Positions 5,941 through 49,100 are shown, counted from the stretch's first letter. The stretch: DNA of 64,000 nucleotides from Eledone cirrhosa (GCA_964016885.1 OZ024745.1:1426001-1490000); one strand, 5' to 3'. The notes: a model not told the origin generated them from the sequence alone. Numbers and translations: made by a program.

Positions 5941-5970
<30 letters not shown>

Positions 5971-6103
5971 GGAAAAAATGAAACGAAATTTCATTTCCCA
6001 CTCTTAGTACGGCCGTTACTTAAATATAAGTATGTACACGTACATACATATATGTATTTCCGTTTATCGTTTTCGGTGCACCCGGCCGATTAACCCACTC
6101 AAT

Positions 6104-6111
6104 ATGCAAAT
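6104..6111 (+). promoter_or_regulatory. Octamer motif ATGCAAAT upstream of hammerhead
   Basis: Exact octamer at an equivalent position in related elements (22479, 41413, 41881, 42349 on the minus strand); function inferred. Confidence 0.4.
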
Positions 6112-6178
6112 TGGGCTACTCAGCCGTTAATATGCATAAGGTAAGTATATAGGTTCAATAATCTGACAGGAAGGTATA

Positions 6179-6219
6179 CGTTGCTGACGATAGCTAATAA
6201 GCTTGAAACTAGTACAGCG
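6179..6219 (+). ncRNA. Minimal type I hammerhead ribozyme
   Basis: CGTTG-CTGACGA-tAGCT(aata)AGCTt-GAAAC-TA-GTA^CAGCG; palindromic stem III ACTAGT. Confidence 0.85.
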
Positions 6220-7512
6220 TTCCTTTGTCTGTTGAACAAACGAGCAACGATGGTTGCTGGACACTACGGCGTAATACGGGATGTTTGTTTACAAACACAC
6301 CGAGCATTATAATAAATGTTCGGTGAATCCATACGTACATATATATATGTGTGCATGTATGTATATATATATACATACTACTGTACGTCTGTATACATAT
6401 ATGTATGTACGTGTACATACTTATATATATATATATATACTATATATTTTATTAAGGCTAAACAGTGAGTGTTGTTACTGTGGAGTTTCGCCTACATATG
6501 ACAGTGTCATCAGAGAAGAATTAACATTTAATAGCAGAGACAGTACAAATAAGAGAGGGAGAGAGAGGGGGTAGTGGGAGGGGTGGGGAGTGTAGACAGA
6601 TCTATAGATAGATAGTGTAGATAGAGTGAGAGAGAGAGAGAGAGAGAGGGGGTAGTGGGAGGGGTGGGGAGTGTAGACAGATCTATAGATAGATAGTGTA
6701 GATAGAGTGAGAGAGATAGAGAGAGAGAGAGGGGGTAGTGGGAGGGGTGGGGAGTGTAGACAGATCTATAGATAGATAGTGTAGATAGAGTGAGAGAGAG
6801 AGAAGTGTAGATGTGTTTCTCCCTCTATTTCACTCACTTCCCCTCCCACTTTCTCTATACCATCTTTCTATCTGTCACATTCTCTCTTATATTTTATATC
6901 TTCTTTGTCTTTCCTCCCTCCCCCTCCTCCTCTTTGTTTATTCCCTCCTTTCACTTATTTTATACTCCCCCTCCTACTTCTGGAATCTGACCTTCACATC
7001 CTCTCACTGTTTCTCCTATTACCACACAGTCATTTCTCCCCCTCTCTCATTAATACTACCCCCATCTTTAACTCTCCTCCTCTCTCATTACTATTACCTA
7101 CCTCTCTCTAACTCACCCCTCTCTCATTTCTATTACCTACCTCTTTTTAACTCTTCCCCTCTCTCATTACTATTACCTACTTCTCTTTAACTCTCCCTCT
7201 CAACTGTATTACCTACCTCTCTTTAATTCTCCCCCTCTCTCAATAATATTATCTACTTCTCTCTAACTCTCCCCCTCTCTCAATAATATTACCTACCTCT
7301 CTCACATCTCGCCCCTCTCAATACTATTACCTACCTCCTCTCCCCCTCTCGCATTACTATTACCTACCTCTCTCTCCCCTCTCTCATTTATTACCTACCT
7401 CCTCTCCCCCTCTCTATATAAGTTGCTCTCTTCATGCCGCTCTAACATCAATGGAACCTGCTTTGTATTTTTTGTCTTTTCTGTTTTACCTTCCAGCTTG
7501 TGATTCGCCATA

Positions 7513-20500: not shown

Positions 20501-20570
20501 TATAGAACTGTATAGTGTAGTTATAACTATAGAACTGTATAGTGTAGTTATAACTATAGAACTGTAAACT
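14531..20570. repeat. 27-bp satellite array (~220 copies)
   Basis: Unit TATAGTGTAGTTATAACTATAGAACTG containing the palindrome TAGTTATAACTA; explains the ITTLYSSIV and QFYSYNYTI pseudo-ORFs. Confidence 0.97.
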
Positions 20571-22096: not shown

Positions 22097-22133
<37 letters not shown>

Positions 22134-22348
22134 GTTAAAAATGTACATCTACATATGCATACTGAAATACTAGTATGCATATGAATACACACACGTATAC
22201 ATATGTAGATGTACCAAGTCTTTCACTGGTTACTTTACTGTGAGTATCCAGCTATTCTGTATGTAAACACACAGACAAACCGGTTTTTAGAGTCATACTG
22301 GTTTTTGAGGAAACACCTTTCCTCTATTCTCCAGAAAGCCAGACAAGG

Positions 22349-22393
22349 AATATTGAACTAGTTTCGTTGTTGTTACAACTCATCAGCAATATT
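22349..22393 (-). ncRNA. Minimal type I hammerhead ribozyme
   Basis: Reverse complement reads AATATTG-CTGATGA-GTTGT(aaca)ACAAC-GAAAC-TA-GTT^CAATATT. Confidence 0.9.
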
Positions 22394-22790
22394 TACCTAT
22401 CTACCGGCCTTTCTGGAGAATCGTAAAAGCACATATCGTTATATGCTTTTTCTATGAAAATTAGTAGTGGGCAGACTAATTTGCATAGAGTGTGAGTACG
22501 TACCGGTTCAACGGAGACGATAAAAACAAATAACGAAACGAAATTAAATTTCGTTTCGTTTGTAACTCACTTTTGTATGACTGACGCTTAAACAATTAAG
22601 TTAAAAATGTACATCTACATATGCATACTGAAATACTAGTATGCATATGAATACACACACGTATACATATGTAGATGTACCAAGTCTTTCACTGGTTACT
22701 TTACTGTGAGTATCCACTACTAATTTTCATAGAAAAAGCATATAACGATATGTGCTTTTACGATTCTCCAGAAAGGCCGGTAGATAGGTA

Positions 22791-22835
22791 AATATTGCTG
22801 ATGAGTTGTAACAACAACGAAACTAGTTCAATATT
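22791..22835 (+). ncRNA. Minimal type I hammerhead ribozyme
   Basis: AATATTG-CTGATGA-GTTGT(aaca)ACAAC-GAAAC-TA-GTT^CAATATT; 7-bp stem I and canonical core. Confidence 0.9.
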
Positions 22836-23123
22836 CCTTGTCTGGCTTTCTGGAGAATAGAGGAAAGGTGTTTCCTCAAAAACCAGTATGACTCTAAAAA
22901 CCGGTTTGTCTGTGTGTTTACATACAGAATAGCTGGATACTCACAGTAAAGTAACCAGTGAAAGACTTGGTACATCTACATATGTATACGTGTGTGTATT
23001 CATATGCATACTAGTATTTCAGTATGCATATGTAGATGTACATTTTTAACTTAATTGTTTAAGCGTCAGTCATACAAAAGTGATTTACAAACGAAACGAA
23101 ATTTAATTTCGTTTCGTTATTTG

Positions 23124-23191
<68 letters not shown>

Positions 23192-24200: not shown

Positions 24201-24278
24201 ATACATACATACATACATACATACATACATACATACATACATACATACATACATACATACACATATATATACATATAT

Positions 24279-25499
24279 CATGGCTGCAAACTCGTGTTCG
24301 AGTATTGCCATCGCCCGATAAAATGCTCAAAAATGTGAGACACGAATGTGGCTCTTTAAACCAGTCAAATGCTTGCACCCTCTGGCACATATATGGCAAC
24401 TGATGGCTTCTCTGGGACTTTCCATTGCTTTGTTCTGACTGTGTTTCTTATGTGTCTTTTAAGATCTCCCATGCTAGCACACTCCTTGCCACATTCCTTA
24501 CACCTTTTCAGATCATAATCTACATGAGGTCTACTGATATGACTTTGTTCATGTCTAATCAGGCAGTTCAGAACAGTCTCCTTTCCTCAACTTCCTTTTC
24601 ACTGTTTGGTGTTCCCTTCGACGAGTTTCAAGGTGTTCACTTCCTGACTTGATCAAACGTCTCCACTTCACTCCTCCTCAGCCATTTTCTCCCATTCGTC
24701 AGATGAAATTCCAGCACAAACGAAGGTGCCTCTGACACAGTCCCGGTACCGCATTTTTGGTTTGTGTGGTGGTCGCCTTCCTTCACACAGTTCTCCGTAG
24801 AGAAATTGCTTTGGAATACGATCATCAGACATCCAGACCACGTGTCCACACCACCTCAACCGATACCGAAAGATTATGCTCTCTATAGTCACGCACCTGC
24901 TCCGTTCGAGAACTTCCAAATCACTGACGAACATTTTCCATCGCACCCCAAGTAACTTACGAAGAAATTGTTGGCGAAATCTCTCCAGTTCCTTGAGATG
25001 CTTTCTGTCTGTGACCCACGTTTCACAAACATAAAGCAAAGAGGAGACGACACAAGTCAGATACACTTTCACCTTGGTTTCAATGGTGATACCTTGTCTG
25101 GACCATAAACGTTGATGCAGCCGTCCAAAAGCATCACTGGCTTTCTTGATTCTTAAGGGTACTTCATTATCATGTGTGCATGAAGTGTTCAACGTACTAC
25201 CAAGGTAAAGAAACTTGTCAGCAACGTTTAGCCTCTTTCCGTACACGTACACACTTGGTGCAGTGTACTCGTTTCCAGGTGTTGGCTGATAGATCACAAC
25301 AGTCTTTTCCAAGCTTATTGTGAGGCCCAAAGTGCTGCAAGCTTCAGAAAAAGAGTTCATAATAATCTGCATGTCACTTTGTGAGTGTGCAAAAAGATCG
25401 CAGTCGTCTGCATACAAACATTCTCGGATTATAGATGTTAATACCTTCGTGCTTGCACCAAATGCCTGATGTTAAACAACCTTCCCGAAAGGCGATACC

Positions 25500-25505
<6 letters not shown>
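24279..25505 (-). mobile_element. 5'-truncated RTE-clade LINE (RT motif C onward)
   Basis: [60 protein letters not shown]; 3' end followed by (TATG)n. Confidence 0.9.
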
Positions 25506-25550
<45 letters not shown>

Positions 25551-25580
25551 ACCTTCCCGAAAGGCGATACCTGATGTATA

Positions 25581-25626
<46 letters not shown>

Positions 25627-25662
25627 CATATATATACATCAGGTATCGCCTTTCGGGAAGGT

Positions 25663-25702
<40 letters not shown>

Positions 25703-31857: not shown

Positions 31858-32497
31858 GTCGAATGGTGGTTGGCGGTGATGAAATAGAGGAGGTGGAGGA
31901 ATACGTCTACCTGGGACAAGAAGTGAACATGCGCCGAGACATTGAGAGGGAGATCTCCCGGAGAGTAAGGGCCGGATGGAAGGCGTTCAACGGCATAAGG
32001 GATGTGCTCAAGGGGAGGTTGAAAAAGACCACCCGCGCCAACCTCTTCAATAGCACAGTTTTACCTGCAATGTTATATGGCAGTTAAACTTGAGCTACAA
32101 CGAAGAGAGAAGAGCAGAGGCTGGTAACGGCTCATAGAGCCATGGAGAGATCAATGCTAGGAATCTCGTTGAGAAAGCACATCAGGAGCGAAGTCATCAG
32201 ACAGAGGTCCGGCGTGAGGGACGTCATCACGGAATATATGCGCAGCAAGTTCAGATGGGCTGGACACGTCATCCGGTTCACCGATAATCGGTGGACCCGC
32301 GCAGTTGCCAAGTGGTTCTCGCACGAGCGGAAACGACCACACGGAAGGCCTCGACGAGGGTGGAGTTACGATTTTAAGAATACGATTGGGACTACATGGA
32401 TGAGGAAATCACGATCCAGAGAGGAATGGACGGCGTGCTGTGACCAGCGGCGCTGAATGGACGCCCGACAGACTGGTCGGTCAAGGTGATCAAGGTG

Positions 32498-32590: not shown

Positions 32591-32794
32591 GTATTAGTGA
32601 TACTATTTATGGTTATGTAAACACAAGACCTTAAGCAGTTGTAAGTATTTTACACACACCCTAAATAGTGGTAGGCAGTATTGTATTACTACCTTATTAC
32701 CAGTAAGTTAAGTAGCTCAATGTAAAAACATCAGATGATTTACAGAGCAGTTATATGAAATATAAGAATCAAAGAACTGTTCAAAACATTATTG

Positions 32795-32841
32795 TGCTTA
32801 CAGCTGTTTCCTCCAAACCGAGGTTTGGATTCTTCGGAGCA
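32795..32841 (-). ncRNA. pLTR hammerhead ribozyme (inverted copy)
   Basis: Reverse complement of 35822-35868. Confidence 0.8.
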
Positions 32842-34286
32842 ATTTATTAATGCATGGACAGTTATATGACCTCCCTTTCAGCCGAGAGACATACCAATAC
32901 ATATTCAAACATTGATACATATTCAAACATTGTGGGTCAACATTCATTACAGAATTTAGAGTGGCAGTACACACTTCGAGATTACATTTATATTAATAGG
33001 TACAATCAAAAATCAAAAATATAGGTTAAAATACAACATGAAGATATGCGGTTATATAGTGCAAATGTTATAAGTGTGGCACGCATGTGCGTCTTGTTTA
33101 TATAGTGTGGCAGAGAGATATGTGTGGTAGAGGCACTTAGGTAGGTAAATAAGAGTGTTAGGTGGTAGATCTGGTGGCAAATTCTTTATATGATTGATAT
33201 AGTCTGTGTGTGGAGAAATATTATAAGCATTAAAGATAGTGCAAGCATTAAAAGTGTTATAAGTAATGGAGATGCACAGCGCAGGGATGTCAAGTATTTC
33301 ATGTACTTCGGCATTTTCATGGTCAGGGGAGTGTATTTTTCGATTATATGCCCTTCACGTAATCCACGACAATCCAGTTAGAGATCGTAGTCTGGTGTTC
33401 TTTAGTTCGATACAGGAGGTTGTTACGTTTCTAGAAACGCCATTGAATACCGCCCGGAAGTGTGTGTGTGTGGCAAAGGGGAGTTAATGCGTGCGGGGAG
33501 GTAACTCTGGGGTTTCTATATCTAGCCATTAAAATGTGTCCCAATATAGACCCTAAATTCTATGGTGATGTGCACCTTCCAAGAGAGATTTTTAAAGCAT
33601 AAAGTGTATTAACTATAGAGTAGTTTAATTAAGTTATGCTGAAGGTGGTCATATTATTATGGTGGATTAACCCATCTTAAGGTGCCATAAATGGAAATTA
33701 TAGATGATGAGCGAGGATTCTAAATTAATGATCTCTGTGGTTGTAGTCTGCTCATATGACCAGGCGCGGTGATTGCAGGCTTGCTTCAGGACCCAATGAT
33801 CTCTGGTAAGATCTGGGTCATCGCTTGCTACATTTGATGTCGAAAGAAAATCATCCCCAGGCCGGCCAAAGGTCAATCCGCAGTCCTCGCGACCCCTCTC
33901 TGACCGTCAGATCATCCATATACGTACAACCCGCCCGGCAGTTGCAATGCATTCACTCACTGCGCTCAGCAGTCCGGTCCTACTGGTCAACAGCGCTACT
34001 CGATTAAATCATTTTACATCCGTCTAAGGAAGGTGTTTCCTCTGCACAACACTATCCGACCGATCAATTCATGCTCAAATTACCCTTAGAGCGGTGTAGT
34101 GCCGTTCAAGTGGGTGGATGTTGTCACGCCTGCCGTAGAGGTATAAATGGGTATTCTCCCTGCGAAGGGTTCCAGAGGGATGTCGTTGTTTGTGTTATAA
34201 TGGATCAGTTAGTGTTGGGTATGTAGTATAAGGTGTGTCTCTGGTGTTTGATGCTAGATGTGGTGTTAGGTTCCAGTCCGACCTTG

Positions 34287-35646
34287 CTATATATTGGGCT
34301 TAAAGTTTTGGAAGGAATGTCTGAGGCGGTGCTGGCAAGTTGCAAACACCTCAGATTTTTTGTTAAGTAGGTTACGGTTGGAGAAGATAATATTGTGTGT
34401 CTCTAGGTTACAGAATTTATTAGGTGGTTTGTACGAGGTCGCGCTGCCTATCACTTCCCATTTGAGTGTGTATGGTTTATTTTTAGATTTTAGATAGTGT
34501 ATGTAGCTAGAAAGTGAGGTGGAGTTGGCTAGGCTGTGCTTTTTGAACGAGTGGATGTGCGAATTATATCTGATTTTGAAGCAGTTAGAAGTGGAGCCTA
34601 CATAGGTTTCTGAAGAGTTATTAGTCGTGACGGTGCATGAGTATATGACATCCTTGGTTAGGCATTTTTTATCTAAAGGGCAGGTTCTATTAGCTCTACA
34701 GTTACAATTATCCTGTGCGTTAGTCCGCTGGTTATAATGCAATGCGGAAGTCTGTGTGGTAGATATAGGATTTTGGGTGTTCGGGTTGACAACCCTGGTG
34801 TTATTACTTATACTAGTGTTATTTCTATTGTTACTGCCGTTGCTATGGTTGCTGGCTACAGTGGTATTTAGAGGGTTTGCATCCCGTTGTGATTTTGTTT
34901 GTTGGAAGTAAGAACTAATTTTACTATTATTGCTGCTAGCTATGTGGTATGCTAAGTTAGGCGTTGTAGAGTATGAGATTTTAATGGTGTTTTTGTTTGA
35001 GAGGTTGTGGTACTTGTGTCCTAGAGGGAAGTTTTTATCTAGTAGTGAGAAGAAAGCCCTAGGTATGTTGGTGGAGACATTAAGGTTGAAAGGAGGGTTG
35101 AAAAATGTATTATTTCTTCTTCTATTTTTGCTTTTAGTGTTTGGTGTGTTGCTTCCTCCTAAGGCCCCACAGTAGTTTCCATGGTAATGGTTACTTCTGG
35201 TGGCACCCAACGCTTTGGTGTACTTGTGGTTGCTATTCCTATTATTAGATTTCCTCATGGACATGTTGTGCGAGATGATGTTGTAGCTATGTGTTTTCTT
35301 AGGTAGGAACTCAATTTCTATATTATGGCCGGAGCTAGCTAATGCTTGATTGTAATATTGTGAGTTTTTGCTAAATATGTTTGCGTCATAGGACAGACTA
35401 GAGATTCTATTGGACACCCCCTTAGAGATAGAGTTTAATATTGATCTAGGGTGATTAGACTTGGTATCTACGTAAATAAGTTTCTCATTAGGCTTATGGA
35501 AAGGTGTATATATTTTTGAGTCTAGGTATAGTGTGGCGTCTAGGAAGTTAACATTTTTAGTGTTTTTGTCCATGGTGATACTAAGGTTAAAGTTTTTGAA
35601 TGTCTTATGCAGTTGTTTTCTAGTTCTTTCTATATTAAATTTTTAT
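34287..35646 (-). pseudogene. Inverted 3' part of the Penelope ORF (end of RT, linker, GIY-YIG)
   Basis: Near-identical to ~37205-38565; begins just after the YRDD motif; three visible amino-acid differences. Confidence 0.93.
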
Positions 35647-35679
35647 AATATTAATATCTATATTAATTTTTATAATATT

Positions 35680-36074
35680 AATCTCGAAGTGTGTACTGCC
35701 ACTCTAAATTCTGTAATGAATGTTGACCCACAATGTTTGAATATGTATCAATGTTTGAATATGTATTGGTATGTCTCTCGGCTGAAAGGGAGGTCATATA
35801 ACTGTCCATGCATTAATAAATTGCTCCGAAGAATCCAAACCTCGGTTTGGAGGAAACAGCTGTAAGCACAATAATGTTTTGAACAGTTCTTTGATTCTTA
35901 TATTTCATATAACTGCTCTGTAAATCATCTGATGTTTTTACATTGAGCTACTTAACTTACTGGTAATAAGGTAGTAATACAATACTGCCTACCACTATTT
36001 AGGGTGTGTGTAAAATACTTACAACTGCTTAAGGTCTTGTGTTTACATAACCATAAATAGTATCACTAATACTA
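35680..36074 (+). repeat. 5' pseudo-LTR of the Penelope-like element
   Basis: Direct repeat of 39850-40082 and inverted repeat of 32589-32983. Confidence 0.9.
35822..35868 (+). ncRNA. pLTR minimal hammerhead (variant core CCGAAGA)
   Basis: TGCT-CCGAAGA-aTCCAAAC(ctcg)GTTTGGAg-GAAAC-AGCT-GTA^AGCA; palindromic stem III ACAGCTGT typical of Penelope HHRs. Confidence 0.8.
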
Positions 36075-36114
36075 TTAACTGCTCCATATCGTTGAGCTGA
36101 CATATATTGCCAAT

Positions 36115-38565
36115 ATGCTAATCAAAGACCAACTCCCCATGTCAACCAAGAACATACCAATACCATCCAGGAATACATATGAGAAATTGCTGATCAACAG
36201 TGTAAATTCATTTATCAATAGAGTGAGATGGAGGACATTCCATTATGATAGAAATAAATCTAACAACTTGAATAATACTAACAATTTTGACTCCTTCGGC
36301 TTTAAAACCTTTAAAAGCCCCCCTCATAACACTCTTCTTAACTCCTTTGAAAATGACCTAGTTAAACTAGTTAAGAACATTAAATACAATAAGCACCATA
36401 TTAAAAGCAACACCTTCTTAAACAAACTTAACACTTCTATTAATGGATTCAAAACTAGTAATAAAATTATTGTACACGCAGATAAAACTAATAACATATA
36501 CAGCCTAGATTATAATACTTATAGAAAGTTTATATATAATGAACTACATAAAAGCTACAAAAAAACCACCTTGAAAAACTTAGAAGATATTAATGTAGAG
36601 GGTTATAATATAGTGTCTAAACTAGGACTACAGAGGCATACACAACCTTTCACTCCGAACCCCCCTAGATTCTCTCTGAAGGACCATAAGGAGAACTTCA
36701 TCAGCAACCCCACGATAAGACTTATCTGCCCTTCCAAGTCCGACATTGGTATTATCAGCAAGAAGATTTTGGATAAAATCATCCCACAAATTAAACACAA
36801 GATACACCTTAAACAATGGGGAAATACGGGTGAAGTCATTGAATGGTTCAAGGATATCAAGAATAATAAGAACAAAAAATTTATTCAATTTGATATCAAT
36901 TCGTACTACACCTCTATTTCCCCTATCCTATTAAATAAGGCACTTATCATGGCCATGACCAATAGCGACCTGACTAGAGCCCAGGTTGATGTCATCCTTG
37001 CGGCCCGTAAAACCATAATTACCTTTGAGGACCAACTATGGACACGCAAGGATACGCACAACAACTTCGACATAACCATGGGATCTAGTGACTCGGCGCA
37101 GGTCACTGATTTGGTCGGTCTATACCTCCTCAATGAAATCCATAAGGACCTCCCTTACCTCAACGGTGGTTTGTACCGCGATGATGCACTTCTACTTATA
37201 GAATATAAAAAATTTAATATAGAAAGAACTAGAAAACAACTGCATAAGACATTCAAAAACTTTAACCTTAGTATCACCATGGACAAAAACACTAAAAATG
37301 TTAACTTCCTAGACGCCACACTATACCTAGACTCAAAAATATATACACCTTTCCATAAGCCTAATGAGAAACTTATTTACGTAGATACCAAGTCTAATCA
37401 CCCTAGATCAATATTAAACTCTATCTCTAAGGGGGTGTCCAATAGAATCTCTAGTCTGTCCTATGACGCAAACATATTTAGCAAAAACTCACAATATTAC
37501 AATCAAGCATTAGCTAGCTCCGGCCATAATATAGAAATTGTGTTCCTACCTAAGAAAACACATAGCTACAACATCATCTCGCACAACATGTCCATGAGGA
37601 AATCTAATAATAGGAATAGCAACCACAAGTACACCAAAGCGTTGGGTGCCACCAGAAGTAACCATTACCATGGAAGCTACTGTGGGGCCTTAGGAGGAAG
37701 CAACACACCAAACACTAAAAGCAAAAATAGAAGAAGAAATAATACATTTTTCAACCCTCCTTTCAACCTTAATGTCTCCACCAACATACCTAGGGCTTTC
37801 TTCTCACTACTAGATAAAAACTTCCCTCTAGGACACAAGTACCACAACCTCTTAAACAAAAACACCATTAAAATCTCATACTCTACGACGCCTAACTTAG
37901 CATACCACATAGCTAGCAGCAATAATAGTAAAATTAGTTCTTACTTCCAACAAACAAAATCACAAAGGGATGCAAACCCTCTAAATACCACTGTAGCCAG
38001 CAACCATAGCAACGGCAGTAACAATAGAAATAACACTAGTATAAGTAATAACACCAGGGTTGTCAACCCGAACACCCAAAATCCTATATCTACCACACAG
38101 ACTTCCGCATTGCATTATAACCAGCGGACTAACGCACAGGATAATTGTAACTGTAGAGCTAATAGAACCTGCCCTTTAGATAAAAAATGCCTAACCAAGG
38201 ATGTCATATACTCATGCACCGTCACGACTAATAACTCTTCAGAAACCTATGTAGGCTCCACTTCTAACTGCTTCAAAATCAGATATAATTCGCACATCCA
38301 CTCGTTCAAAAAGCACAGCCTAGCCAACTCCACCTCACTTTCTAGCTACATACACTATCTAAAATCTAAAAATAAACCATACACACTCAAATGGGAAGTG
38401 ATAGGCAGCGCGACCTCGTACAAACCACCTAATAAATTCTGTAACCTAGAGACACACAATATTATCTTCTCCAACCGTAACCTACTTAACAAAAAATCTG
38501 AGGTGTTTGCAACTTGCCAGCACCGCCTCAGACATTCCTTCCAAAACTTTAAGCCCAATATATAG
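36115..38565 (+). CDS. Penelope-like retroelement polyprotein: reverse transcriptase + C-terminal GIY-YIG endonuclease (Naiad-like), 816 aa
   Basis: Uninterrupted ORF with STKNIPIPS, ADKTNNIY, FIQFDINSYYTSI, MGSSDSAQVTDLVG, GGLYRDDALL, VNFLDATL, CNCR..CPLDKKCL, DVIY..TYVGST..FKIRYNSH, LLNKKSE..CQH. Confidence 0.95.
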   Translation: MLIKDQLPMSTKNIPIPSRNTYEKLLINSVNSFINRVRWRTFHYDRNKSNNLNNTNNFDSFGFKTFKSPPHNTLLNSFENDLVKLVKNIKYNKHHIKSNTFLNKLNTSINGFKTSNKIIVHADKTNNIYSLDYNTYRKFIYNELHKSYKKTTLKNLEDINVEGYNIVSKLGLQRHTQPFTPNPPRFSLKDHKENFISNPTIRLICPSKSDIGIISKKILDKIIPQIKHKIHLKQWGNTGEVIEWFKDIKNNKNKKFIQFDINSYYTSISPILLNKALIMAMTNSDLTRAQVDVILAARKTIITFEDQLWTRKDTHNNFDITMGSSDSAQVTDLVGLYLLNEIHKDLPYLNGGLYRDDALLLIEYKKFNIERTRKQLHKTFKNFNLSITMDKNTKNVNFLDATLYLDSKIYTPFHKPNEKLIYVDTKSNHPRSILNSISKGVSNRISSLSYDANIFSKNSQYYNQALASSGHNIEIVFLPKKTHSYNIISHNMSMRKSNNRNSNHKYTKALGATRSNHYHGSYCGALGGSNTPNTKSKNRRRNNTFFNPPFNLNVSTNIPRAFFSLLDKNFPLGHKYHNLLNKNTIKISYSTTPNLAYHIASSNNSKISSYFQQTKSQRDANPLNTTVASNHSNGSNNRNNTSISNNTRVVNPNTQNPISTTQTSALHYNQRTNAQDNCNCRANRTCPLDKKCLTKDVIYSCTVTTNNSSETYVGSTSNCFKIRYNSHIHSFKKHSLANSTSLSSYIHYLKSKNKPYTLKWEVIGSATSYKPPNKFCNLETHNIIFSNRNLLNKKSEVFATCQHRLRHSFQNFKPNI

Positions 38566-39849
38566 CAAGGTCGGACTGGAACCTAACACCACATCTAGCA
38601 TCAAACACCAGAGACACACCTTATACTACATACCCAACACTAACTGATCCATTATAACACAAACAACGACATCCCTCTGGAACCCTTCGCAGGGAGAATA
38701 CCCATTTATACCTCTACGGCAGGCGTGACAACATCCACCCACTTGAACGGCACTACACCGCTCTAAGGGTAATTTGAGCATGAATTGATCGGTCGGATAG
38801 TGTTGTGCAGAGGAAACACCTTCCTTAGACGGATGTAAAATGATTTAATCGAGTAGCGCTGTTGACCAGTAGGACCGGACTGCTGAGCGCAGTGAGTGAA
38901 TGCATTGCAACTGCCGGGCGGGTTGTACGTATATGGATGATCTGACGGTCAGAGAGGGGTCGCGAGGACTGCGGATTGACCTTTGGCCGGCCTGGGGATG
39001 ATTTTCTTTCGACATCAAATGTAGCAAGCGATGACCCAGATCTTACCAGAGATCATTGGGTCCTGAAGCAAGCCTGCAATCACCGCGCCTGGTCATATGA
39101 GCAGACTACAACCACAGAGATCATTAATTTAAAATCCTCGCTCATCATCTATAATTTCCATTTATGGCACCTTAAGATGGGTTAATCCACCATAATAATA
39201 TGACCACCTTCAGCATAACTTAATTAAACTACTCTATAGTTAATACACTTTATGCTTTAAAAATCTCTCTTGGAAGATGCGCATCACCATAGAATTTAGA
39301 GTCTATATTGGGACACATTTTAATGGCTAGATATAGAAACCCCAGAGTTACCTCCCCGCACGCATTAACTCCCCTTTGCCACACACACACTTCCGGGCGG
39401 TATTCAATGGCGTTTCTAGAAACGTAACAACCTCCTGTATCGAACTAAAGAACACCAGACTACGATCTCTAACTGGATTGTCGTGGATTACGTGAAGGGC
39501 ATATAATCGAAAAATACACTCCCCTGACCATGAAAATGCCGAAGTACATGAAATACTTGACATCCCTGCGCTGTGCATCTCCATTACTTATAACACTTTT
39601 AATGCTTGCACTATCTTTAATGCTTATAATATTTCTCCACACACAGACTATATCAATCATATAAAGAATTTGCCACCAGATCTACCAACCTAACACTCTT
39701 ATTTACCTACCTAAGTGCCTCTACCACACTATATAAACAAGACGCACATGCGTGCCACACATATAACATTTGCACTATATAACCGCTTATCTTCATGTTG
39801 TATTTTAACCTATATTTTTGATTTTTGATTGTACCTATTAATATAAATG

Positions 39850-40255
<406 letters not shown>

Positions 40256-40256
40256 C

Positions 40257-40305
<49 letters not shown>

Positions 40306-40309
40306 TATA

Positions 40310-40775
40310 CGGGTTACTTAAATATAAGTATGTATACGTACATACATATATGTATACAGACGTACAGTAGTAAATAATATATACATACATGCACACACAT
40401 ATATATATGTACGTATGGATTCACCGAACATTTATTATAATGCTCGCTGCTCAGCCGTTAATATGCATAAGGAAAGTATATACTTTCGGACGTTCAACCA
40501 TCTGGCAGGAAGGTATACGTTGCTGACGATAGCTAATAAGTTTGAAACTAGTACAGCGTTCCTTTGTCAGTGTTGAACAAAAGAGCAACGATGGTTGCTA
40601 GACACTGTACGGCTTAATTCGGGATGTTTGTTTACAAACACACCGAGCATTATAATAAATGTTCGGTGAATCCATACGTACATATATATGTGTGCATATA
40701 TGTATATATATATATATATATACACACTACTGTACGTCTGTATACAAATATGTATGTACGTATACATACTTATAT
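40310..40775 (+). mobile_element. Retrozyme-like element (468-bp family) with inverted duplication of its 3' ~125 bp
   Basis: 40321-40446 is an approximate reverse complement of 40644-40775; the body is homologous to 6118-6425. Confidence 0.8.
40518..40558 (+). ncRNA. Minimal type I hammerhead ribozyme
   Basis: CGTTG-CTGACGA-tAGCT(aata)AGTTt-GAAAC-TA-GTA^CAGCG. Confidence 0.8.
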
Positions 40776-40791
40776 ATATATATATATATAT

Positions 40792-40967
40792 ATAGGAAAA
40801 AGTATGACCCCGACGGCAGAGCTCAAGCCGTTTCGACGGAAATAGCCGTCGAAACGGCTTGAGCTCTGTCGTCGGGGTCGTACTTTTTCCTATTTCCCAC
40901 TCTACTACCCTAAGTATTGAGTACTCTGGTGCGTTATGGTCCATCTGGTTCCTTACCACAATTCCTT

Positions 40968-40972
<5 letters not shown>
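40792..40972. mobile_element. Fold-back element centred on a hammerhead stem II
   Basis: Palindrome 40792-40893; the right arm reads CCGTC-GAAAC-GGC(ttgagctct)GTC-GTC^GGGGTC; same family as 45136-45560. Confidence 0.7.
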
Positions 40973-41056
<84 letters not shown>

Positions 41057-41296
41057 AGTATGCATGTATACGTACATACATATATGTATACAAACGTACA
41101 GTAGCATGCACATATATATATATATATATACATATATACATACATATGCATACAGGTACACATACATATATGCACGTATCAGTTTAGCGGCGCTAACGTC
41201 GCTTTGTTCGTTTGTAAACAAACTGAACAGCCTGAATTTATGCCATACGGTGTTAAGGCAACCACGTCACCTTTTTGTTCAACACTGACACAGGAA

Positions 41297-41337
41297 CGAT
41301 GTACTAGTTTCAAGCTTGTTAGCTATCATCAGCACCG
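41297..41337 (-). ncRNA. Minimal type I hammerhead (monomer 1)
   Basis: Reverse complement reads CGGTG-CTGATGA-tAGCT(aaca)AGCTt-GAAAC-TA-GTA^CATCG. Confidence 0.87.
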
Positions 41338-41764
41338 TTTACCCATCTGCCAGATAGTTGAACGTTCGAAAGTATATACTTTCCTTATGAAAATTAACGG
41401 CTGAGCAGCCTAATTTGCATATTGAGTGAGTTAAATCGGTCAGGCATACCGAAAACGATAAATTGAAACAAAATGAAAACGAAATTTCATTTCTCACTCT
41501 TAGTATGGCACTTACTTAAATGTAAGTATGCATGTATACGTACATACATATATGTATACAAACGTACAGTAGCATGCACATATATATATATATATATACA
41601 TATATACATACATATGCATACAGGTACACATACATATATGCACGTATCAGTTTAGCGGCGCTAACGTCGCTTTGTTCGTTTGTAAACAAACTGAACAGCC
41701 TGAATTTATGCCATACGGTGTTAAGGCAACCACGTCACCTTTTTGTTCAACACTGACACAGGAA

Positions 41765-41805
41765 CGATGTACTAGTTTCAAGCTTGTTAGCTATCATCAG
41801 CACCG
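41765..41805 (-). ncRNA. Minimal type I hammerhead (monomer 2)
   Basis: Identical to 41297-41337. Confidence 0.87.
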
Positions 41806-42232
41806 TTTACCCATCTGCCAGATAGTTGAACGTTCGAAAGTATATACTTTCCTTATGAAAATTAACGGCTGAGCAGCCTAATTTGCATATTGAGTGAGTT
41901 AAATCGGTCAGGCATACCGAAAACGATAAATTGAAACAAAATGAAAACGAAATTTCATTTCTCACTCTTAGTATGGCACTTACTTAAATGTAAGTATGCA
42001 TGTATACGTACATACATATATGTATACAAACGTACAGTAGCATGCACATATATATATATATATATACATATATACATACATATGCATACAGGTACACATA
42101 CATATATGCACGTATCAGTTTAGCGGCGCTAACGTCGCTTTGTTCGTTTGTAAACAAACTGAACAGCCTGAATTTATGCCATACGGTGTTAAGGCAACCA
42201 CGTCACCTTTTTGTTCAACACTGACACAGGAA

Positions 42233-42273
42233 CGATGTACTAGTTTCAAGCTTGTTAGCTATCATCAGCACCG
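42233..42273 (-). ncRNA. Minimal type I hammerhead (monomer 3)
   Basis: Identical to 41297-41337. Confidence 0.87.
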
Positions 42274-42702
42274 TTTACCCATCTGCCAGATAGTTGAACG
42301 TTCGAAAGTATATACTTTCCTTATGAAAATTAACGGCTGAGCAGCCTAATTTGCATATTGAGTGAGTTAAATCGGTCAGGCATACCGAAAACGATAAATT
42401 GAAACAAAATGAAAACGAAATTTCATTTCTCACTCTTAGTATGGCACTTACTTAAATGTAAGTATGCATGTATACGTACATACATATATGTATACAAACG
42501 TACAGTAGCATGCACATATATATATATATATATATACATATATACATACATATGCATACAGGTACACATACATATATGCACGTATCAGTTTAGCGGCGCT
42601 AACGTCGCTTTGTTCGTTTGTAAACAAACTGAACAGCCTGAATTTATGCCATACGGTGTTAAGGCAACCACGTCACCTTTTTGTTCAACACTGACACAGG
42701 AA

Positions 42703-42743
42703 CGATGTACTAGTTTCAAGCTTGTTAGCTATCATCAGCACCG
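42703..42743 (-). ncRNA. Minimal type I hammerhead (monomer 4)
   Basis: Identical to 41297-41337. Confidence 0.87.
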
Positions 42744-42794
42744 TTTACCCATCTGCCAGATAGTTGAACGTTCGAAAGTATATACTTTCCTTAT

Positions 42795-43632
42795 TGTATT
42801 TGGCGGGGACCTTTACATTGGTGTATTTGGTGGGATCCTTTACATTGGTGCATTTGGTGGGGACCTTTACATTGGTGTATTTGGCGAGGGTCCTTTACAT
42901 TGGTGTATTTGGTGGGGACCTTTACATTGGTGTATTTGGTGGGGACCTTTACATTGGTGTATTTGGTGGGGACCTTTACATTGGTGTATTTGGCGGCGAC
43001 CTTTACATTGGTGTATTTGGTGGGGACCTTTACATTGGTGTGTTTGGTGGGGACCATTACATTGGTGTATTTGGTGGGGACCTTTACATTGGTGTACTTG
43101 GCGGGGACCTTTACATTGGTGTATTTGGCGGCGACCTTTACATTGGTGTATTTGGCGGGGACCTTTAGATTGGTGTATTTGGCGAGGGTCCTTTACATTG
43201 GTGTATTTGGTGGGGACCTTTACATTGGTGTATTTGGTGGGGACATTTACATTGGTGTATTTGGTGGGGACCTTTACATTGGTGTATTTGGCGGCGACCT
43301 TTACATTGGTGTATTTGGTGGGGACCTTTACATTGGTGTATTTGGTGGGGACCTTTACATTGGTGTATTTGGCGGCGACCTTTACATTGGTGTATTTGGT
43401 GGGGACCTTTAGATTGGTGTATTTGGTGGGGACCTTTACATTGGTGTATTTGGCGGGGACCTTTACATTGGTGTATTTGGTAGGGTCCTTTACATTGGTG
43501 TATTTGGTGGGGACCTTTACATTGGTGTATTTGGTGGGGACCTTTACATTGGTGTACTTGGCGAGGACCTTTACATTGGTGTATTTGGTGGGGACCTTTA
43601 CATTGGTGTATTTGGTGGGGACCTTTACATTC
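42795..43632. repeat. 27-bp minisatellite (~31 copies)
   Basis: Unit GGTGTATTTGGTGGGGACCTTTACATT. Confidence 0.95.
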
Positions 43633-44127
43633 TGGGTTCAAATCTTATTGAGAACAATTTTCACTTTCACCACGATGTGTGTGTGAGTGTGTGAGTGTGT
43701 GTGTGTGAGTGAGTGTGTGTGTGTGAATGAGTGTGTGTGTGTATGTGAGTGTGTGTGTGAGTGTGTGTGAGTCCGTGTGTATGTATGTGAGTGTGAGTGT
43801 GTGTGTGTGTGTATGTATGTGTGTGTGAGTGTGTGTGTGTGTGAGTGTGTGTGTGTGTGTGAGTTTGTGTGTGTATGTGAGTGTGTTTGTGTATGAGATT
43901 GTATGAGTGTGTGTATGTGTGTGAGTGTATGTGTGTGAGAGTGTGTATGTGTGTGTGTCCTATAGAAATGTAACTGGAATTTAAAATAGAAGTAAAACAT
44001 ATTCTCAATGAAACGTAGTCTATATTTCTGTATAACAAATAACAGGAGAGAATTCTATATCTCAGCGTTAACCTGATTTAATCTCCCAATTTCTTCACAA
44101 AACATCCATAAGTTTACACCATAATTT

Positions 44128-44463
44128 ATATGTGTGGATATATATGGCATATGTATGTGTGGATATATATATATATGGCATATCTATGTGTGGATATATA
44201 TATGGCATATGTATGTGTGGATATATATATGGCATATGTATGTGTGGATATATATATATATGGCATATGTATGTGTGGATATATATATGGCATATGTATG
44301 TGTGGATATATATATATATGGCATATCTATGTGTGGATATATATATGGCATATCTATGTGTGGATATATATATGGCATATGTATGTGTGGATATATATAT
44401 ATATGGCATATCTATGTGTGGATATATATATATATGGCATATCTATGTGTGGATATATATGGC
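44128..44463. repeat. ~28-32-bp minisatellite
   Basis: Unit TATGTGTGGA(TA)nTGGCATAT(G/C). Confidence 0.9.
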
Positions 44464-44543
44464 TTAATGTGATGAGGAGAAGAACATTTTCAACTTCTTT
44501 GGACTATTAAGCGATGATAATGCTGAGTTTCAGGATTTAAACA

Positions 44544-44641
<98 letters not shown>

Positions 44642-44654
44642 ATATATATATATA

Positions 44655-44709
<55 letters not shown>

Positions 44710-44778
44710 AAAAAGGGATGAAATCGAAAATGCAACTGAAGTCTTATTTTTTTTAAAAATATATATATTTATTTGGTT

Positions 44779-44816
44779 CCTTTACCGGTTTCGCAGTTCT
44801 TCTGCTTTTCAAAAGG
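44779..44816 (-). ncRNA. Minimal hammerhead, U3:A8 variant core
   Basis: Reverse complement of 44892-44929. Confidence 0.72.
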
Positions 44817-44891
44817 TGAGTTGATATGGAGGGTCTGTGGTTTTTCTCACATCAGATGTGAGAAAAACCACAGACCCTCCATCTCAACTCA

Positions 44892-44929
44892 CCTTTTGAA
44901 AAGCAGAAGAACTGCGAAACCGGTAAAGG
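44892..44929 (+). ncRNA. Minimal hammerhead, U3:A8 variant core
   Basis: CCTT-TTGAAAA-GCAG(aagaa)CTGC-GAAAC-CG-GTA^AAGG; palindromic stem III ACCGGT. Confidence 0.72.
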
Positions 44930-45019
44930 AACCAAATAAATATATATATTTTTTTTAAAAATAAGACTTCAGTTGCATTTTCGATTTCATCTTTTTTTCT
45001 TTATATATATATATATATA

Positions 45020-45117
45020 CAGGGTGTCGCAAAAATGTATTCACACTTCAACAGCATTCTTACAAATATTGCCTGTACAAGTAATCAAAGTGTGTATACA
45101 TCTTTTGGGACACCGTA
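45020..45117. mobile_element. ~100-bp Tc1/mariner-like MITE
   Basis: TA|CAGGGTGTCGCAAAAATGTATTCACACTT ... AAGTGTGTATACATCTTTTGGGACACCGTA|TA imperfect TIRs inside (TA)n. Confidence 0.7.
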
Positions 45118-45135
45118 TATATATATATATATATA

Positions 45136-45326
45136 TAACGAAGGAAAAGTGGTAAGGAACCAGGTGGACCATAACGCAGCAAACTACTCAATACTTAGGG
45201 TAGTAGAGTGGGTAATAGGAACGAGTAGGACACCGACGGCTGAGCTCAAGCCGTTTCGACGGCTAATTCTAGTCCAGAATTAGCCGTCGAAACGGCTTGA
45301 GCTCAGCCGTCGGGGTCTTACTCGTT

Positions 45327-45387
<61 letters not shown>

Positions 45388-45413
45388 ACACATGTATGTG
45401 TGTATTTATACAC

Positions 45414-45457
<44 letters not shown>

Positions 45458-45560
45458 GGAACCGGTTAGACCGGTTCCTATTACCCACTCTACTACCCCA
45501 AGTATTGAGTACTTTGGTGCGTTATGGTCCACCTGGTTCCTTACCACATTTCCTTCGTTA
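45136..45560. mobile_element. Fold-back element(s) centred on a hammerhead stem II, plus a second hairpin-capped fragment
   Basis: Hairpin centre AGTCC at 45271-45275; the right arm reads GAAAC-GGC(ttgagctca)GCC-GTC^GGGGTC; 45457-45560 mirrors 45136-45222 and starts with GGAACCGG(ttaga)CCGGTTCC. Confidence 0.7.
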
Positions 45561-46135
45561 TATATATATATATATATATATATACAAGTATATATTACAC
45601 AAAGAGAAGTGTGTTACACAGTGAGATGTGTGTAAATAATTATTACGAGTGATTTTACCGTTACTGTATACAGAGCAATATCTACAGGTTAGCAATTAAA
45701 TAGAAAAAAACAATTCAGAATCAATTCTCTGGATTAGAGTTTTAAGTCACAAACCTTATAACTATATTTTGCTGACACGAATCTCGCTTCATTTCACCAC
45801 TTATATGTGAAGTATCAGGTCACAGGATCCTCAGTCAGCAAATGCAAAGCACTGAACACTACACATCTAACCTCATGGATAGAGAGATTTCTAATAGACA
45901 CGCTGGCCAGAGTAGGGCGAAATCACGTGTTATTTCAATGAAATAACGGCTGTCATGGATTGGGGAAGACGCAAAAAGTGCAGACCAACCATTCGAATTT
46001 ATTAGCTCAACAATTTGGAGCTCAGAAGGAAATTCTCTATTTCTTCTTTGAGCTAATACTATTATTATTATTATTACAGTGAACTGCGGAATACTCTTAA
46101 TTCCGATCTTTGTATACTTAATGAGCTCCGAATTG

Positions 46136-49100
46136 CAGTGTGTCGAGTATTTCAGATAGTTTAGGGCGAGACCAGTGTGTCGAGTATTTCAGATAGTTTA
46201 GGTCGAGACCAGTGTGTCGTGTATTTCAGATAGTTAAGGGCGAGACCAGTGTGTCGTGTATTTCAGATAGTTTAGGGCGAGACCAGTGTGTCGAGTATTT
46301 CAGATAGTTTAGGGCGAGACCAGTGTGTCGAGTATTTCAGATAGTTTAGGGCGAGACCAGTGTGTCGAGTATTTCAGATAGTTAAGGCCGAGACCAGTGT
46401 GTCGTGTATTTCAGATAGTTTAGGGCGAGACCAGTGTGTCGTGTATTTCAGATAGTTTAGGGCGAGACCAGTGTGTCGTGTATTTCAGATAGTTTAGGTC
46501 GAGACCAGTGTGTCGAGTATTTCAGATTGTTTAGGGCGAGACCAGTGTGTCGTGTATTTCAGATAGTTAAGGCCGAGACCAGTGTGTCGTGTATTTCAGA
46601 TAGTTTAGGTCGAGACCAGTGTGTCGTGTATTTCAGATAGTTTAGGGCGAGACCAGTGTGTCGTGTATTTCAGATAGTTTAGGGCGAGACCAGTGTGTCG
46701 AGTATTTCAGATAGTTTAGGTCGAGACCAGTGTGTCGAGTATTTCAGATAGTTTAGGGCGAGACCAGTGTGTCGTGTATTTCAGATAGTTTAGGTCGAGA
46801 CCAGTGTGTCGAGTATTTCAGATTGTTTAGGGCGAGACCAGTGTGTCGTGTATTTCAGATAGTTAAGGCCGAGACCAGTGTGTCGTGTATTTCAGATAGT
46901 TTAGGTCGAGACCAGTGTGTCGTGTATTTCAGATAGTTTAGGGCGAGACCAGTGTGTCGTGTATTTCAGATAGTTTAGGGCGAGACCAGTGTGTCGAGTA
47001 TTTCAGATAGTTTAGGTCGAGACCAGTGTGTCGAGTATTTCAGATAGTTTAGGGCGAGACCAGTGTGTCGTGTATTTCAGATAGTTTAGGGCGAGACCAG
47101 TGTGTCGTGTATTTCAGATAGTTTAGGGCGAGACCAGTGTGTCGTGTATTTCAGATAGTTTAGGTCGAGACCAGTGTGTCGAGTATTTCAGATAGTTTAG
47201 GGCGAGACCAGTGTGTCGAGTATTTCAGATAGTTTAGGGCGAGACCAGTGTGTCGAGTATTTCAGATAGTTAAGGCCGAGACCAGTGTGTCGAGTATTTC
47301 AGATAGTTTAGGGCGAGACCAGTGTGTCGAGTATTTCAGATAGTTTAGGGCGAGACCAGTGTGTCGAGTATTTCAGATAGTTTAGGTCGAGACCAGTGTT
47401 TCGTGTATTTCAGATAGTTTAGGGCGAGACCAGTGTGTCGTGTATTTCAGATAGTTTAGGGCGAGACCAGTGTGTCGTGTATTTCAGATAGTTTAGGTCG
47501 AGACCAGTGTGTCGAGTATTTCAGATAGTTTAGGTCGAGACCAGTGTGTCGTGTATTTCAGATAGTTTAGGGCGAGACCAGTGTGTCGTGTATTTCAGAT
47601 AGTTTAGGGCGAGACCAGTGTGTCGTGTATTTCAGATAGTTTAGGTCGAGACCAGTGTGTCGAGTATTTCAGATAGTTTAGGGCGAGACCAGTGTGTCGA
47701 GTATTTCAGATAGTTTAGGTCGAGACCAGTGTGTCGAGTATTTCAGATAGTTAAGGCCGAGACCAGTGTGTCGAGTATTTCAGATAGTTTAGGGCGAGAC
47801 CAGTGTGTCGAGTATTTCAGATAGTTTAGGGCGAGACCAGTGTGTCGAGTATTTCAGATAGTTTAGGTCGAGACCAGTGTTTCGTGTATTTCAGATAGTT
47901 TAGGGCGAGACCAGTGTGTCGTGTATTTCAGATAGTTTAGGGCGAGACCAGTGTGTCGTGTATTTCAGATAGTTTAGGTCGAGACCAGTGTGTCGAGTAT
48001 TTCAGATAGTTTAGGTCGAGACCAGTGTGTCGTGTATTTCAGATAGTTTAGGTCGAGACCAGTGTGTCGAGTATTTCAGATAGTTTAGGGCGAGACCAGT
48101 GTGTCGAGTATTTCAGATAGTTTAGGGCGAGACCAGTGTGTCGAGTATTTCAGATAGTTAAGGCCGAGACCAGTGTGTCGTGTATTTCAGATAGTTTAGG
48201 GCGAGACCAGTGTGTCGAGTATTTCAGATAGTTTAGGGCGAGACCAGTGTGTCGAGTATTTCAGATAGTTTAGGGCGAGACAAGTGTGTCGTGTATTTCA
48301 GATAGTTTAGGGCGAGACTAGTGTGTCGTGTATTTCAGATAGTTTAGGGCGAGATCAGTGTGTCGAGTATTTCAGATAGTTTAGGGCGAGACCAGTGTGT
48401 CGTGTATTTCAGATAGTTTAGGGCGAGACCAGTGTGTCGAGTATTTCAGATAGTTTAGGGCGAGACAAGTGTGTCGAGTATTTCAGATAGTTTAGGGCGA
48501 GACCAGTGCGTCGTGTATTTCAGATAGTTTAGGGCGAGACTTGTGTGTCGAGTATTTCAGATAGTTTAGGGCGAGACCAGTGTGTCGAGTATTTCAGATA
48601 GTTTAGGGCGAGACCAGTGTGTCGTGTATTTCAGATAGTTTAGGGCGAGACTTGTGTGTCGAGTATTTCAGATAGTTTAGGGCGAGACCAGTGTGTCGAG
48701 CATTTCAGATAGTTTAGGGCGAGACCAGTGTGTCGTGTATTTCAGATAGTTTAGGGCGAGACCAGTGCGTCGTGTATTTCAGAGAGTTTAGGGCGAGACC
48801 AGTGTGTCGAGTATTTCAGATAGTTTAGGGCGAGACCAGTGTGTCGAGTATTTCAGATAGTTTAGGCCGAGACCAGTGTGTCGTGTATTTCAGATAGTTT
48901 AGGGCGAGACCAGTGTGTCGAGTATTTCAGATAGTTTAGGGCGAGACAAGTGTGTCGTGTATTTCAGATAGTTTAGGGCGAGACCAGTGCGTCGTGTATT
49001 TCAGATAGTTTAGGGCGAGACCAGTGTGCCGAGTATTTAAGATAGTTTAGGGCGAGACCAGTGTGCCGAGTATTTCAGATAGTTTAGGGCGATACCAGTG

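Follow-up and report, generated by a model that had tools for sequence, protein, structure and literature searches.

Organization of the 468-nt tandem array

The window analysed here, a 64,000-nt stretch of Eledone cirrhosa DNA, is rich in repeats, with many (TA)n tracts, long satellites, LINE-like fragments and one Penelope-type open reading frame (ORF). Its long satellites lie at 46136-64000 (37-nt period, 483 copies, reaching the window end) and 14542-20566 (27-nt period, 223 copies), a GGT-based satellite array occupies 7529-9789, and fragments at 23347-25471 (minus strand) and 32094-32456 (plus strand) carry an RWxGH motif and are presumably LINE-like reverse transcriptase (RT) C-termini. 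No tRNA genes were found in the window with ARAGORN, and microRNA matches from Rfam over the TA-rich block scored below the gathering threshold and reflect low complexity. The features of interest are a partial tandem array of a 468-nt unit read on the minus strand, three dispersed relatives and a neighbouring Penelope-type element (Table 1).

Table 1. Positions of the retrozyme-like array, its relatives and associated features in the window
Feature	Position	Strand	Remarks
Relative A6	5968..6428	+	both outer ends in (TA)n
Relative C22, 466-nt unit	22129..23128		hammerheads 22386(-), 22798(+)
Hydra-like Penelope-type element	32591..40088		partial tandem, inverted arm, TA-flanked ends
Relative B40	40311..40774	+	both outer ends in (TA)n
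(TA)n tract adjoining array 3' end	40973..41052		inferred insertion target
Partial tandem array of 468-nt unit	41053..42794	-	cut-to-cut 87 + 470 + 468 + 468 + 249 nt
Type I hammerhead, copy 1	41292..41344	-	predicted cut 41302/41301
Octamer-containing block TATGCAAATT	41412..41421, 41880-41889, 42348-42357	-	candidate internal promoter element
"Tail" segment, unit 250-312 (site 2)	41458..41520	-	hairpin, then T-runs
Small hairpin across unit junction (site 1)	41509..41528	-	shared 3' end at/in loop
Type I hammerhead, copy 2	41760..41812	-	predicted cut 41770/41769
Type I hammerhead, copy 3	42228..42280	-	predicted cut 42238/42237
Type I hammerhead, copy 4	42698..42750	-	predicted cut 42708/42707
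Unrelated 27-nt satellite at array 5' end	42795..43631		no TA tract or inverted arm between

A period of 468 and a copy number of 3.7 were assigned by TRF to 41052-42794. The three full copies (41053-41520, 41521-41988 and 41989-42456) show 0/468 differences from one another, and the fourth, partial copy is 99.4% identical over 338 aligned columns. Both results agree with an earlier sequence-only reading of this DNA, which had described about 3.7 head-to-tail copies of 468 nt, identical except for one TA; measured from cut to cut, the monomers are 470, 468 and 468 nt, a difference of one additional TA. With unit position 1 set as the base after the predicted cut, the 5' end of the array (42794) falls at unit position 382 and its 3' end (41053) at unit position 249. 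The unit has a GC content of 35.9% and is non-coding, the longest ORF starting with Met in a doubled unit being 40 aa in the sense and 74 aa in the antisense direction. No LTR layout was visible at the array or at any of the three relatives. Non-LTR retrozymes can have target-site duplications of more than 4 bp; any such duplication would be masked here by TA tracts, and the array 5' end adjoins the satellite.

A type I hammerhead in every unit

The CUGAUGA...GAAAC-UA-GUA motif that the sequence-only reading had placed on the minus strand of each copy was recovered at 41332, 41800, 42268 and 42738, giving a type I hammerhead in all four array units; one is also present in all three relatives. 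In 5' to 3' order, the array ribozyme comprises helix I (AACGGUG/CAUCGUU, 7 pairs), the core CUGAUGA, helix II (AGC(U)/(A)GCU, 3-4 pairs, with a U.U mismatch at its base), GAAA, A-CUAG-U and a final A followed by the predicted cut; helix III is a single A-U pair plus the palindromic CUAG. The earlier description of this motif as a "minimal HHR" does not hold, since a helix I of 7 pairs, a helix II of 3-4 and a helix III of 1 are those of a canonical animal type I hammerhead, and the label "min-HHR" was rejected for the array ribozyme on the definitions in PMC4209133. By motif pattern, no hammerhead was found on the plus strand of the array.

The pattern CTGANGA-N8-24-GAAACTAGT matched eight times in the window, and 100 shuffles gave no match (mean 0.00, maximum 0); a helix I of 6-7 pairs was present in 8/8 of these core-plus-palindrome matches. 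As an outside control, a similar, looser pattern gave 24 matches in viral contigs, none of which reached 4 helix I pairs (0/24) or showed BLAST similarity (0/24); we regard them as chance matches. When metagenome contigs were scanned with a pattern specific to the family, 0 stretches matched. Against Rfam, the two motifs of the relative at 22 kb matched Hammerhead_HH9 (38.6 bits, E = 3.1e-6; gathering score 52), and the array motifs were absent among the 150 of 219 matches listed.

Aligning the ribozymes of the array and its three relatives, 92.2% of 64 cells pair and two-sided changes occur at 6 of 16 pairs, in an alignment of n = 4 in which 5/6 of the two-sided changes come from C22 and the structure was drawn from the same sequences. 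None of 500 shuffles reached either value, and slid controls gave at most one two-sided pair. The helix I change from CGGUG/CAUCG to CGUUG/CAGCG, previously offered as covariation, is real; it amounts, however, to one G.U to U.G wobble swap. As judged from the aligned sequences, true covariation support for the predicted ribozyme is that provided by the 22-kb subfamily, whose hammerheads have a canonical G10.1-C11.1 pair and a GUU cut triplet. A U.U replaces G10.1-C11.1 in 3/4 subfamilies.

Relatives and the anatomy of their ends

Dispersed copies noticed earlier at 6179 and 40518 proved to be real relatives (A6 and B40), each with a hammerhead, and a third, more distant relative that had escaped that description lies at 22129-23128 (C22). 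The long arm of A6 (6057-6428) runs from unit position 302, through the cut, to 249, with its hammerhead at 6184, and its inverted arm (5968-6057) corresponds to unit 213-312. In B40, the long arm (40446-40774) covers unit 361 to 249, with a hammerhead at 40523, and the inverted arm (40311-40449) covers unit positions of about 126-262. These two long arms are 73-77% identical to the array. C22 consists of a minus arm (22129-22716) that is a 1.26-unit partial tandem (106 to 227 in its own numbering), with 122/122 positions identical in the tandem overlap, and of a plus arm (22714-23128), an inverted copy with a 75-nt tail (352 to 302 in its own numbering). It is identical to the array at 300/429 aligned columns (70%), and the unit length is kept (466 vs 468).

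End statistics were compiled over these 4 loci and their 7 arms, all within the 64-kb window. All seven outer 3' ends abut (TA)n, with (TA)5+ tracts making up 2.7% of the window, and at 4/4 loci one arm ends at a common hairpin (site 1), ~249 nt past the cut. A hairpin like that of site 1 folds in all four subfamilies, and from the shared 3' ends we infer that it is a reverse-transcription start. An inverted, 5'-truncated arm with a tail is present in 3/3 relatives (63 nt in A6, 13 in B40 and 75 in C22), the tail segment (site 2) being confined in the relatives to the outer end of these inverted arms. The far tail end (41458-41500, minus strand) is preceded by a strong hairpin and by runs of T (4 T long in the array, 5 in C22 and 6 in A6), an arrangement that resembles a polymerase III stop; this tail end may set the second RT start. 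Joints between head-to-head arms overlap by 1-4 letters. The cut site coincides with none of the seven 5' ends and is crossed 8 times by the arms. The array itself is one-sided, without an inverted arm and without a second TA flank. In A6, the long arm starts (unit 302) where the tail of the other arm stops (unit 312), a tiling that two primers on a single circle would be expected to give and that is absent from B40 and C22 (1/3).

Penelope-like insertions are known to combine a partial tandem, an inverted 5'-truncated copy and a tail at one end, and members of the Hydra and Naiad clades show a bias towards (TA)n (PMC8557442). In vitro, reverse transcription begins at two internal sites within a stem-loop, with the tail corresponding to the interval between them, and cleavage and extension take place on both strands of the target (PMC11167929). 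The unit was very probably inserted by Penelope-type machinery. The ends of the array would thus be set by priming of this type, 249 nt beyond the cut, and not by the ribozyme.

A second family of short TA-flanked insertions of two inverted arms was observed at 40795-40971, 45137-45331 and 45474-45559, with one tail of ~85 nt, the same anatomy as the retrozyme relatives and no hammerhead seen. Near-perfect TA-flanked palindromes at 44707-45001 and 25476-25669 (285 columns at 96%; short arms around TA tracts) are probably further two-armed truncated insertions. A single TA-rich stretch (32591-45595) accommodates at least five distinct insertions, which suggests that the same tracts were targeted repeatedly.

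A neighbouring Hydra-like Penelope element

The neighbouring element contains an ORF at 36079-38565 (plus strand; 828 codons, stop to stop) with RT and C-terminal GIY-YIG motifs. RW[KR], DK[TS] (as DKT), CxCx5C and CxH motifs are present, DKG is absent, and there is no CxxC before the conserved E, whereas 81/95 homologues have one. These 95 homologues (29-40% identity) were found among 8000 candidates scored; DK[TS] occurs in 88/95 and CxCx5C in 54/95. Searching Pfam with the ORF gave a sub-threshold DDE_3 match and nothing else. The Hydra clade is characterized by RWK-like and DKT motifs, a CxCx5C linker, a C-terminal GIY-YIG and (TA)n insertion (PMC8557442), and by its motifs and (TA)n insertion the neighbouring element is Hydra-like. 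Its 2.9-kb inverted arm is 98.9% identical, accompanied by a 229-nt direct repeat and a tail of ~160 nt, and the insertion is recent-looking. The 3' untranslated region is long, at about 1.5 kb.

The sequence that the 468-nt unit has in common with this element is restricted to low-complexity matches (best E = 0.034); the neighbour therefore attests to the presence of a helper class that targets TA, but does not identify the partner. We also considered the unit as a pLTR of the neighbouring element and rejected this, there being no specific sequence match. The terminal repeat of the element carries a min-HHR-like motif of its own at 39990-40045 (+), 35819-35874 (+) and 32790-32844 (-), a putative ribozyme with a changed core (CCGAAGA, C for U4), helices I and II of 4 and 8 pairs, and a palindrome of 8 letters, ACAGCUGU.

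Predicted folding and candidate promoter

In constrained folds of a two-unit array transcript, the double hammerhead (-195.4 kcal/mol) was 10.1 kcal/mol better than two single hammerheads (-185.3 kcal/mol), in calculations that leave out tertiary contacts and proteins. The earlier suggestion of a hammerhead built for dimer action is consistent with these values, and by its predicted folds the design of the array ribozyme is that of dimer cleavage. The free fold (-200.3 kcal/mol) lies 4.9 kcal/mol below the double fold and pairs the ribozyme core with the palindrome, an inactive arrangement, and the probability of an inter-copy helix III in the ensemble was 0.000. A two-unit model of C22 gave -209.8 (double), -198.0 (two single) and -211.4 kcal/mol (free), the double fold being 11.8 kcal/mol better than two single ones. 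Folded as a circle, the unit reached z = -8.4 against 60 shuffles, predicting a highly self-paired monomer. After removal of a purine-pyrimidine block, z was -4.2 for the sense and -3.7 for the antisense strand, so the self-pairing of the unit is barely strand-specific.

For HHR_Amex1 and HHR_Amex2, cleavage is weak in the monomer and stronger in the dimer (PMC7229834), and 8/9 predicted Xenopus dimers failed to cleave in vitro (10.64898/2026.07.22.740005). The hammerhead of an anole Penelope element required its protein, and the main substrate of that element in vitro was uncut RNA (PMC11167929).

All five matches to TATGCAAATT in the window fall within the family (5/5, with 0.20 expected), ~110-120 nt before the cut; besides the array copies, the octamer block was seen at 6103-6112 and 22478-22487. 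It is 15/16 identical between the array and C22, one of the two best-kept 16-nt windows. Along the minus strand of the array, the block (41409-41421) is followed by a kept TAATTTTCATA...AAG.ATATA (41366-41396) upstream of the ribozyme. The idea of a fixed distance between TATA and ribozyme was abandoned, as this interval is 8 aligned letters shorter in A6 and 13 longer in C22. An octamer of this kind is an snRNA-type enhancer element and a mark of snRNA-type promoters. On this sequence pattern, the block together with TAATTTTCATA...AAG.ATATA is a candidate internal promoter, to be taken as a lead only; newt satellite 2 is stated to carry an snRNA-type promoter (PMC2220036).

Occurrence in public sequencing runs

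Sequence nearly identical to that of the unit was present in 20/24 listed public runs from 15 studies; these runs are labelled with 15 organism codes and, in one case, as a wastewater metagenome. None of the listed runs with the sequence is an RNA run, which carries no information on expression. Contigs, or raw reads in the case of X23, were compared for four of the 24 listed runs (X1, X2, X4 and X23) over 41150-41525. In X2, 5,630 contigs fell on the unit (18 of 5,676 pieces listed), spread over all identity classes (1391 at 99+, 1815 at 95-99, 1930 at 90-95 and 494 at under 90); the family is therefore large and diverse in that run. X2 contig variants at core position 7 (41328) and in loop II (41318) agree with A6 and B40, and 0 variants at or above 5% were found at the 16 core positions, which is not significant given 21 variable places in 376. 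A TA-rich loose end inside the tail, at 41477, was present in 43 X2 contigs (among the 14 of 133 loose ends listed).

Run X1 yielded two matches, one a 470-letter contig (depth 7.1) and the other of 35 letters. The X1 contig lies on 41140-41609, is about one unit long and has 0 differences over 41150-41525; the family is otherwise near-absent from that run. X4 had 20 contigs, with the same variants as X2. In X23, which shares study and organism code with X9, 0 reads fell on the unit among 12,836,656 (~1 in 100 of the run), in a run where presence of the organism is not established. This cross-run pattern is best explained by one rich source with trace carry-over, or by close kin. Horizontal, viroid-like spread of a 468-nt ribozyme circle that uses the TA-targeting Penelope element of any host we consider highly improbable.

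Proposed origin of the array and alternative explanations

The earlier assignment of the array to the retrozymes stands on sequence grounds, each computable feature fitting non-LTR retrozymes, and there is little doubt that the array belongs to this class. For its origin we propose the following chain. Tandem copies would be transcribed from the minus strand, perhaps from the octamer-bearing internal promoter. Pairing between the ACUAGU palindromes of two neighbouring hammerheads would allow cleavage after GUA and set free RNA of unit length, as folding prediction and analogy with amphibian retrozymes suggest, and the monomer may be closed by a host ligase (PMC7229834). A TA-targeting Penelope-type endonuclease/RT would then nick (TA)n and start at the hairpin 249 nt past the junction, and on the second target strand 13-75 nt further on; these ends are observed in the window, and the enzymology is modelled on that described in PMC11167929. 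Copying would pass intact junctions and stop at random, leaving a 5'-truncated partial tandem. That the whole chain is right, with a Penelope-type RT copying a ribozyme-made 468-nt circle 3.7 times into a TA microsatellite in a single event, has in our estimate about an even chance.

Cut linear monomers were rejected as the template, given 0/7 5' ends at the cut and 8 cut-site crossings, which indicate that the junctions of the template were intact, as in a circle or an uncut multimer. The same element and the same Penelope-type insertion could have operated on RNA from a different tandem locus, in the form of a linear multimer that was never cut, in which case the weak hammerhead would seldom cut and circles would have no role in mobility. 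The predicted inactive default fold and the U.U at helix II speak for such a template, as does the uncut RNA that was the main insertion substrate of the anole element in vitro (PMC11167929), and the lack of 5' ends at the cut (0/7) is equally expected from uncut RNA. To yield three identical units from a family as diverse as that in X2, however, the source array itself would have to be uniform; core and palindrome are, moreover, kept across subfamilies with compensatory changes, and the A6 tiling also counts against a multimer. We regard the uncut multimer as a possible, though unlikely, template. The circle is slightly favoured over it because of the uniform units in a diverse family and the A6 tiling; the result expected from copying of a circle would also arise if the source array were uniform or if the units were amplified locally at a later stage. 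An insertion of 1-2 units primed in the Penelope manner and then multiplied locally by unequal exchange or gene conversion is improbable. Local amplification has been proposed for retrozyme arrays (10.64898/2026.07.22.740005), the window is rich in expanded satellites, and the array abuts a 27-nt satellite at its 5' end without the inverted arm and TA flank of 3/3 relatives. C22, however, contains more than one unit inside an intact insertion (122/122 in the overlap), and the neighbouring satellites are 92-96% matched, whereas the array is essentially uniform.

Two further explanations bear on what the units are and on whether the tandem is real. Were the units pLTR fragments, terminal repeats that became detached from an autonomous Penelope element truncated at its 5' end, the insertion anatomy, which is as in the neighbouring autonomous element, would follow, and Xenopus retrozymes do group with pLTRs (10.64898/2026.07.22.740005). 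Yet the unit joins itself without an ORF in the array, A6, B40 and C22, its period is kept at 466-468 nt, its hammerhead is canonical and not a min-HHR, and it has no match in the neighbouring element, which together make such an origin very improbable. That the tandem is an assembly duplication we find barely credible. The units are identical, and the exact X1 contig and the X2 and X4 contigs cross the junction by 5 letters in a comparison that excluded 41526-41575. However, there is an additional TA in one unit, the sequence at the junction is found again in A6, B40 and C22, and varied satellites of 6 and >17 kb are resolved in a window free of N, which suggests that long reads lie behind the assembly.

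Comparison with known systems

Of the systems compared, animal non-LTR retrozymes (PMC7229834) resemble the array in being short tandems with <50% GC and a type I hammerhead per unit, non-coding, predicted to form a self-paired circle and accompanied by a Penelope-like element in the genome. The unit is slightly longer (468 nt) than the 150-450 bp range given there, and (TA)n targeting is not mentioned in the main text of that paper ("microsatellite", 0 occurrences). Helix III of the array, one pair plus a palindromic tetraloop, is like those of axolotl HHR_Amex1 and newt satellite 2, and is combined with a U.U at the base of helix II as in HHR_Amex2 (PMC7229834). Under the definition in a 2026 preprint (at least 2 consecutive units with a complete hammerhead) the array is a retrozyme, with a unit length within the 51-972 bp range reported; most families there have at most 7 units (10.64898/2026.07.22.740005). 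That preprint draws its link to Penelope from co-occurrence and pLTR phylogeny, whereas here the link comes from insertion anatomy; "tail" has 0 occurrences in its text. No homologous pLTR was found for the unit, against one autonomous element in the window.

Penelope-like insertions (PMC8557442, PMC11167929) share with the family partial tandems, an inverted 5'-truncated arm, a tail between two stem-loop RT starts and the (TA)n bias, and non-autonomous, multicopy head-to-tail Penelope-like forms are known from Chlamys (PMC8557442). The family departs from Penelope-like elements in lacking an ORF, in the length of its tails (13, 63 and 75 nt, against 30-40 nt) and in having a canonical, not a minimal, hammerhead. 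The min-HHR of Penelope pLTRs (PMC4209133) has a palindromic helix III region and a dimer architecture in common with the array ribozyme, and for min-HHR systems more-than-unit copying templated by a circle has likewise been proposed. The min-HHR, however, has a helix II of 7-8 bp, a helix I of 4-5 and an unpaired base before helix II (PMC4209133), where the array ribozyme has 3-4 pairs in helix II, 7 in helix I with an extended stem, and no extra base. Viroid-like circular RNAs have ribozymes on both polarities and occur as free replicons, whereas the array has hammerheads on its minus strand only and the family had no match among the metagenome and viral contigs searched.

Circular retrozyme RNAs are documented from coral, mussel and axolotl, and both rolling-circle copying and mobilisation by Penelope have already been proposed for retrozymes (PMC7229834, 10.64898/2026.07.22.740005). 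In the main texts of the openly accessible literature searched, we found no retrozyme family with tails, inverted arms and (TA)n targeting. The anatomy of the array leaves the kind of system unchanged. What the window adds is a compact genomic record of retrozyme mobilisation in an ORF-less family, in which a fixed start in a hairpin and a tail left by a second start occur together with inverted arms and insertion into (TA)n. It gives independent support for Penelope-type enzymes moving animal retrozymes, and it pinpoints unit 249 and unit 262-312 as candidate RNA sites.
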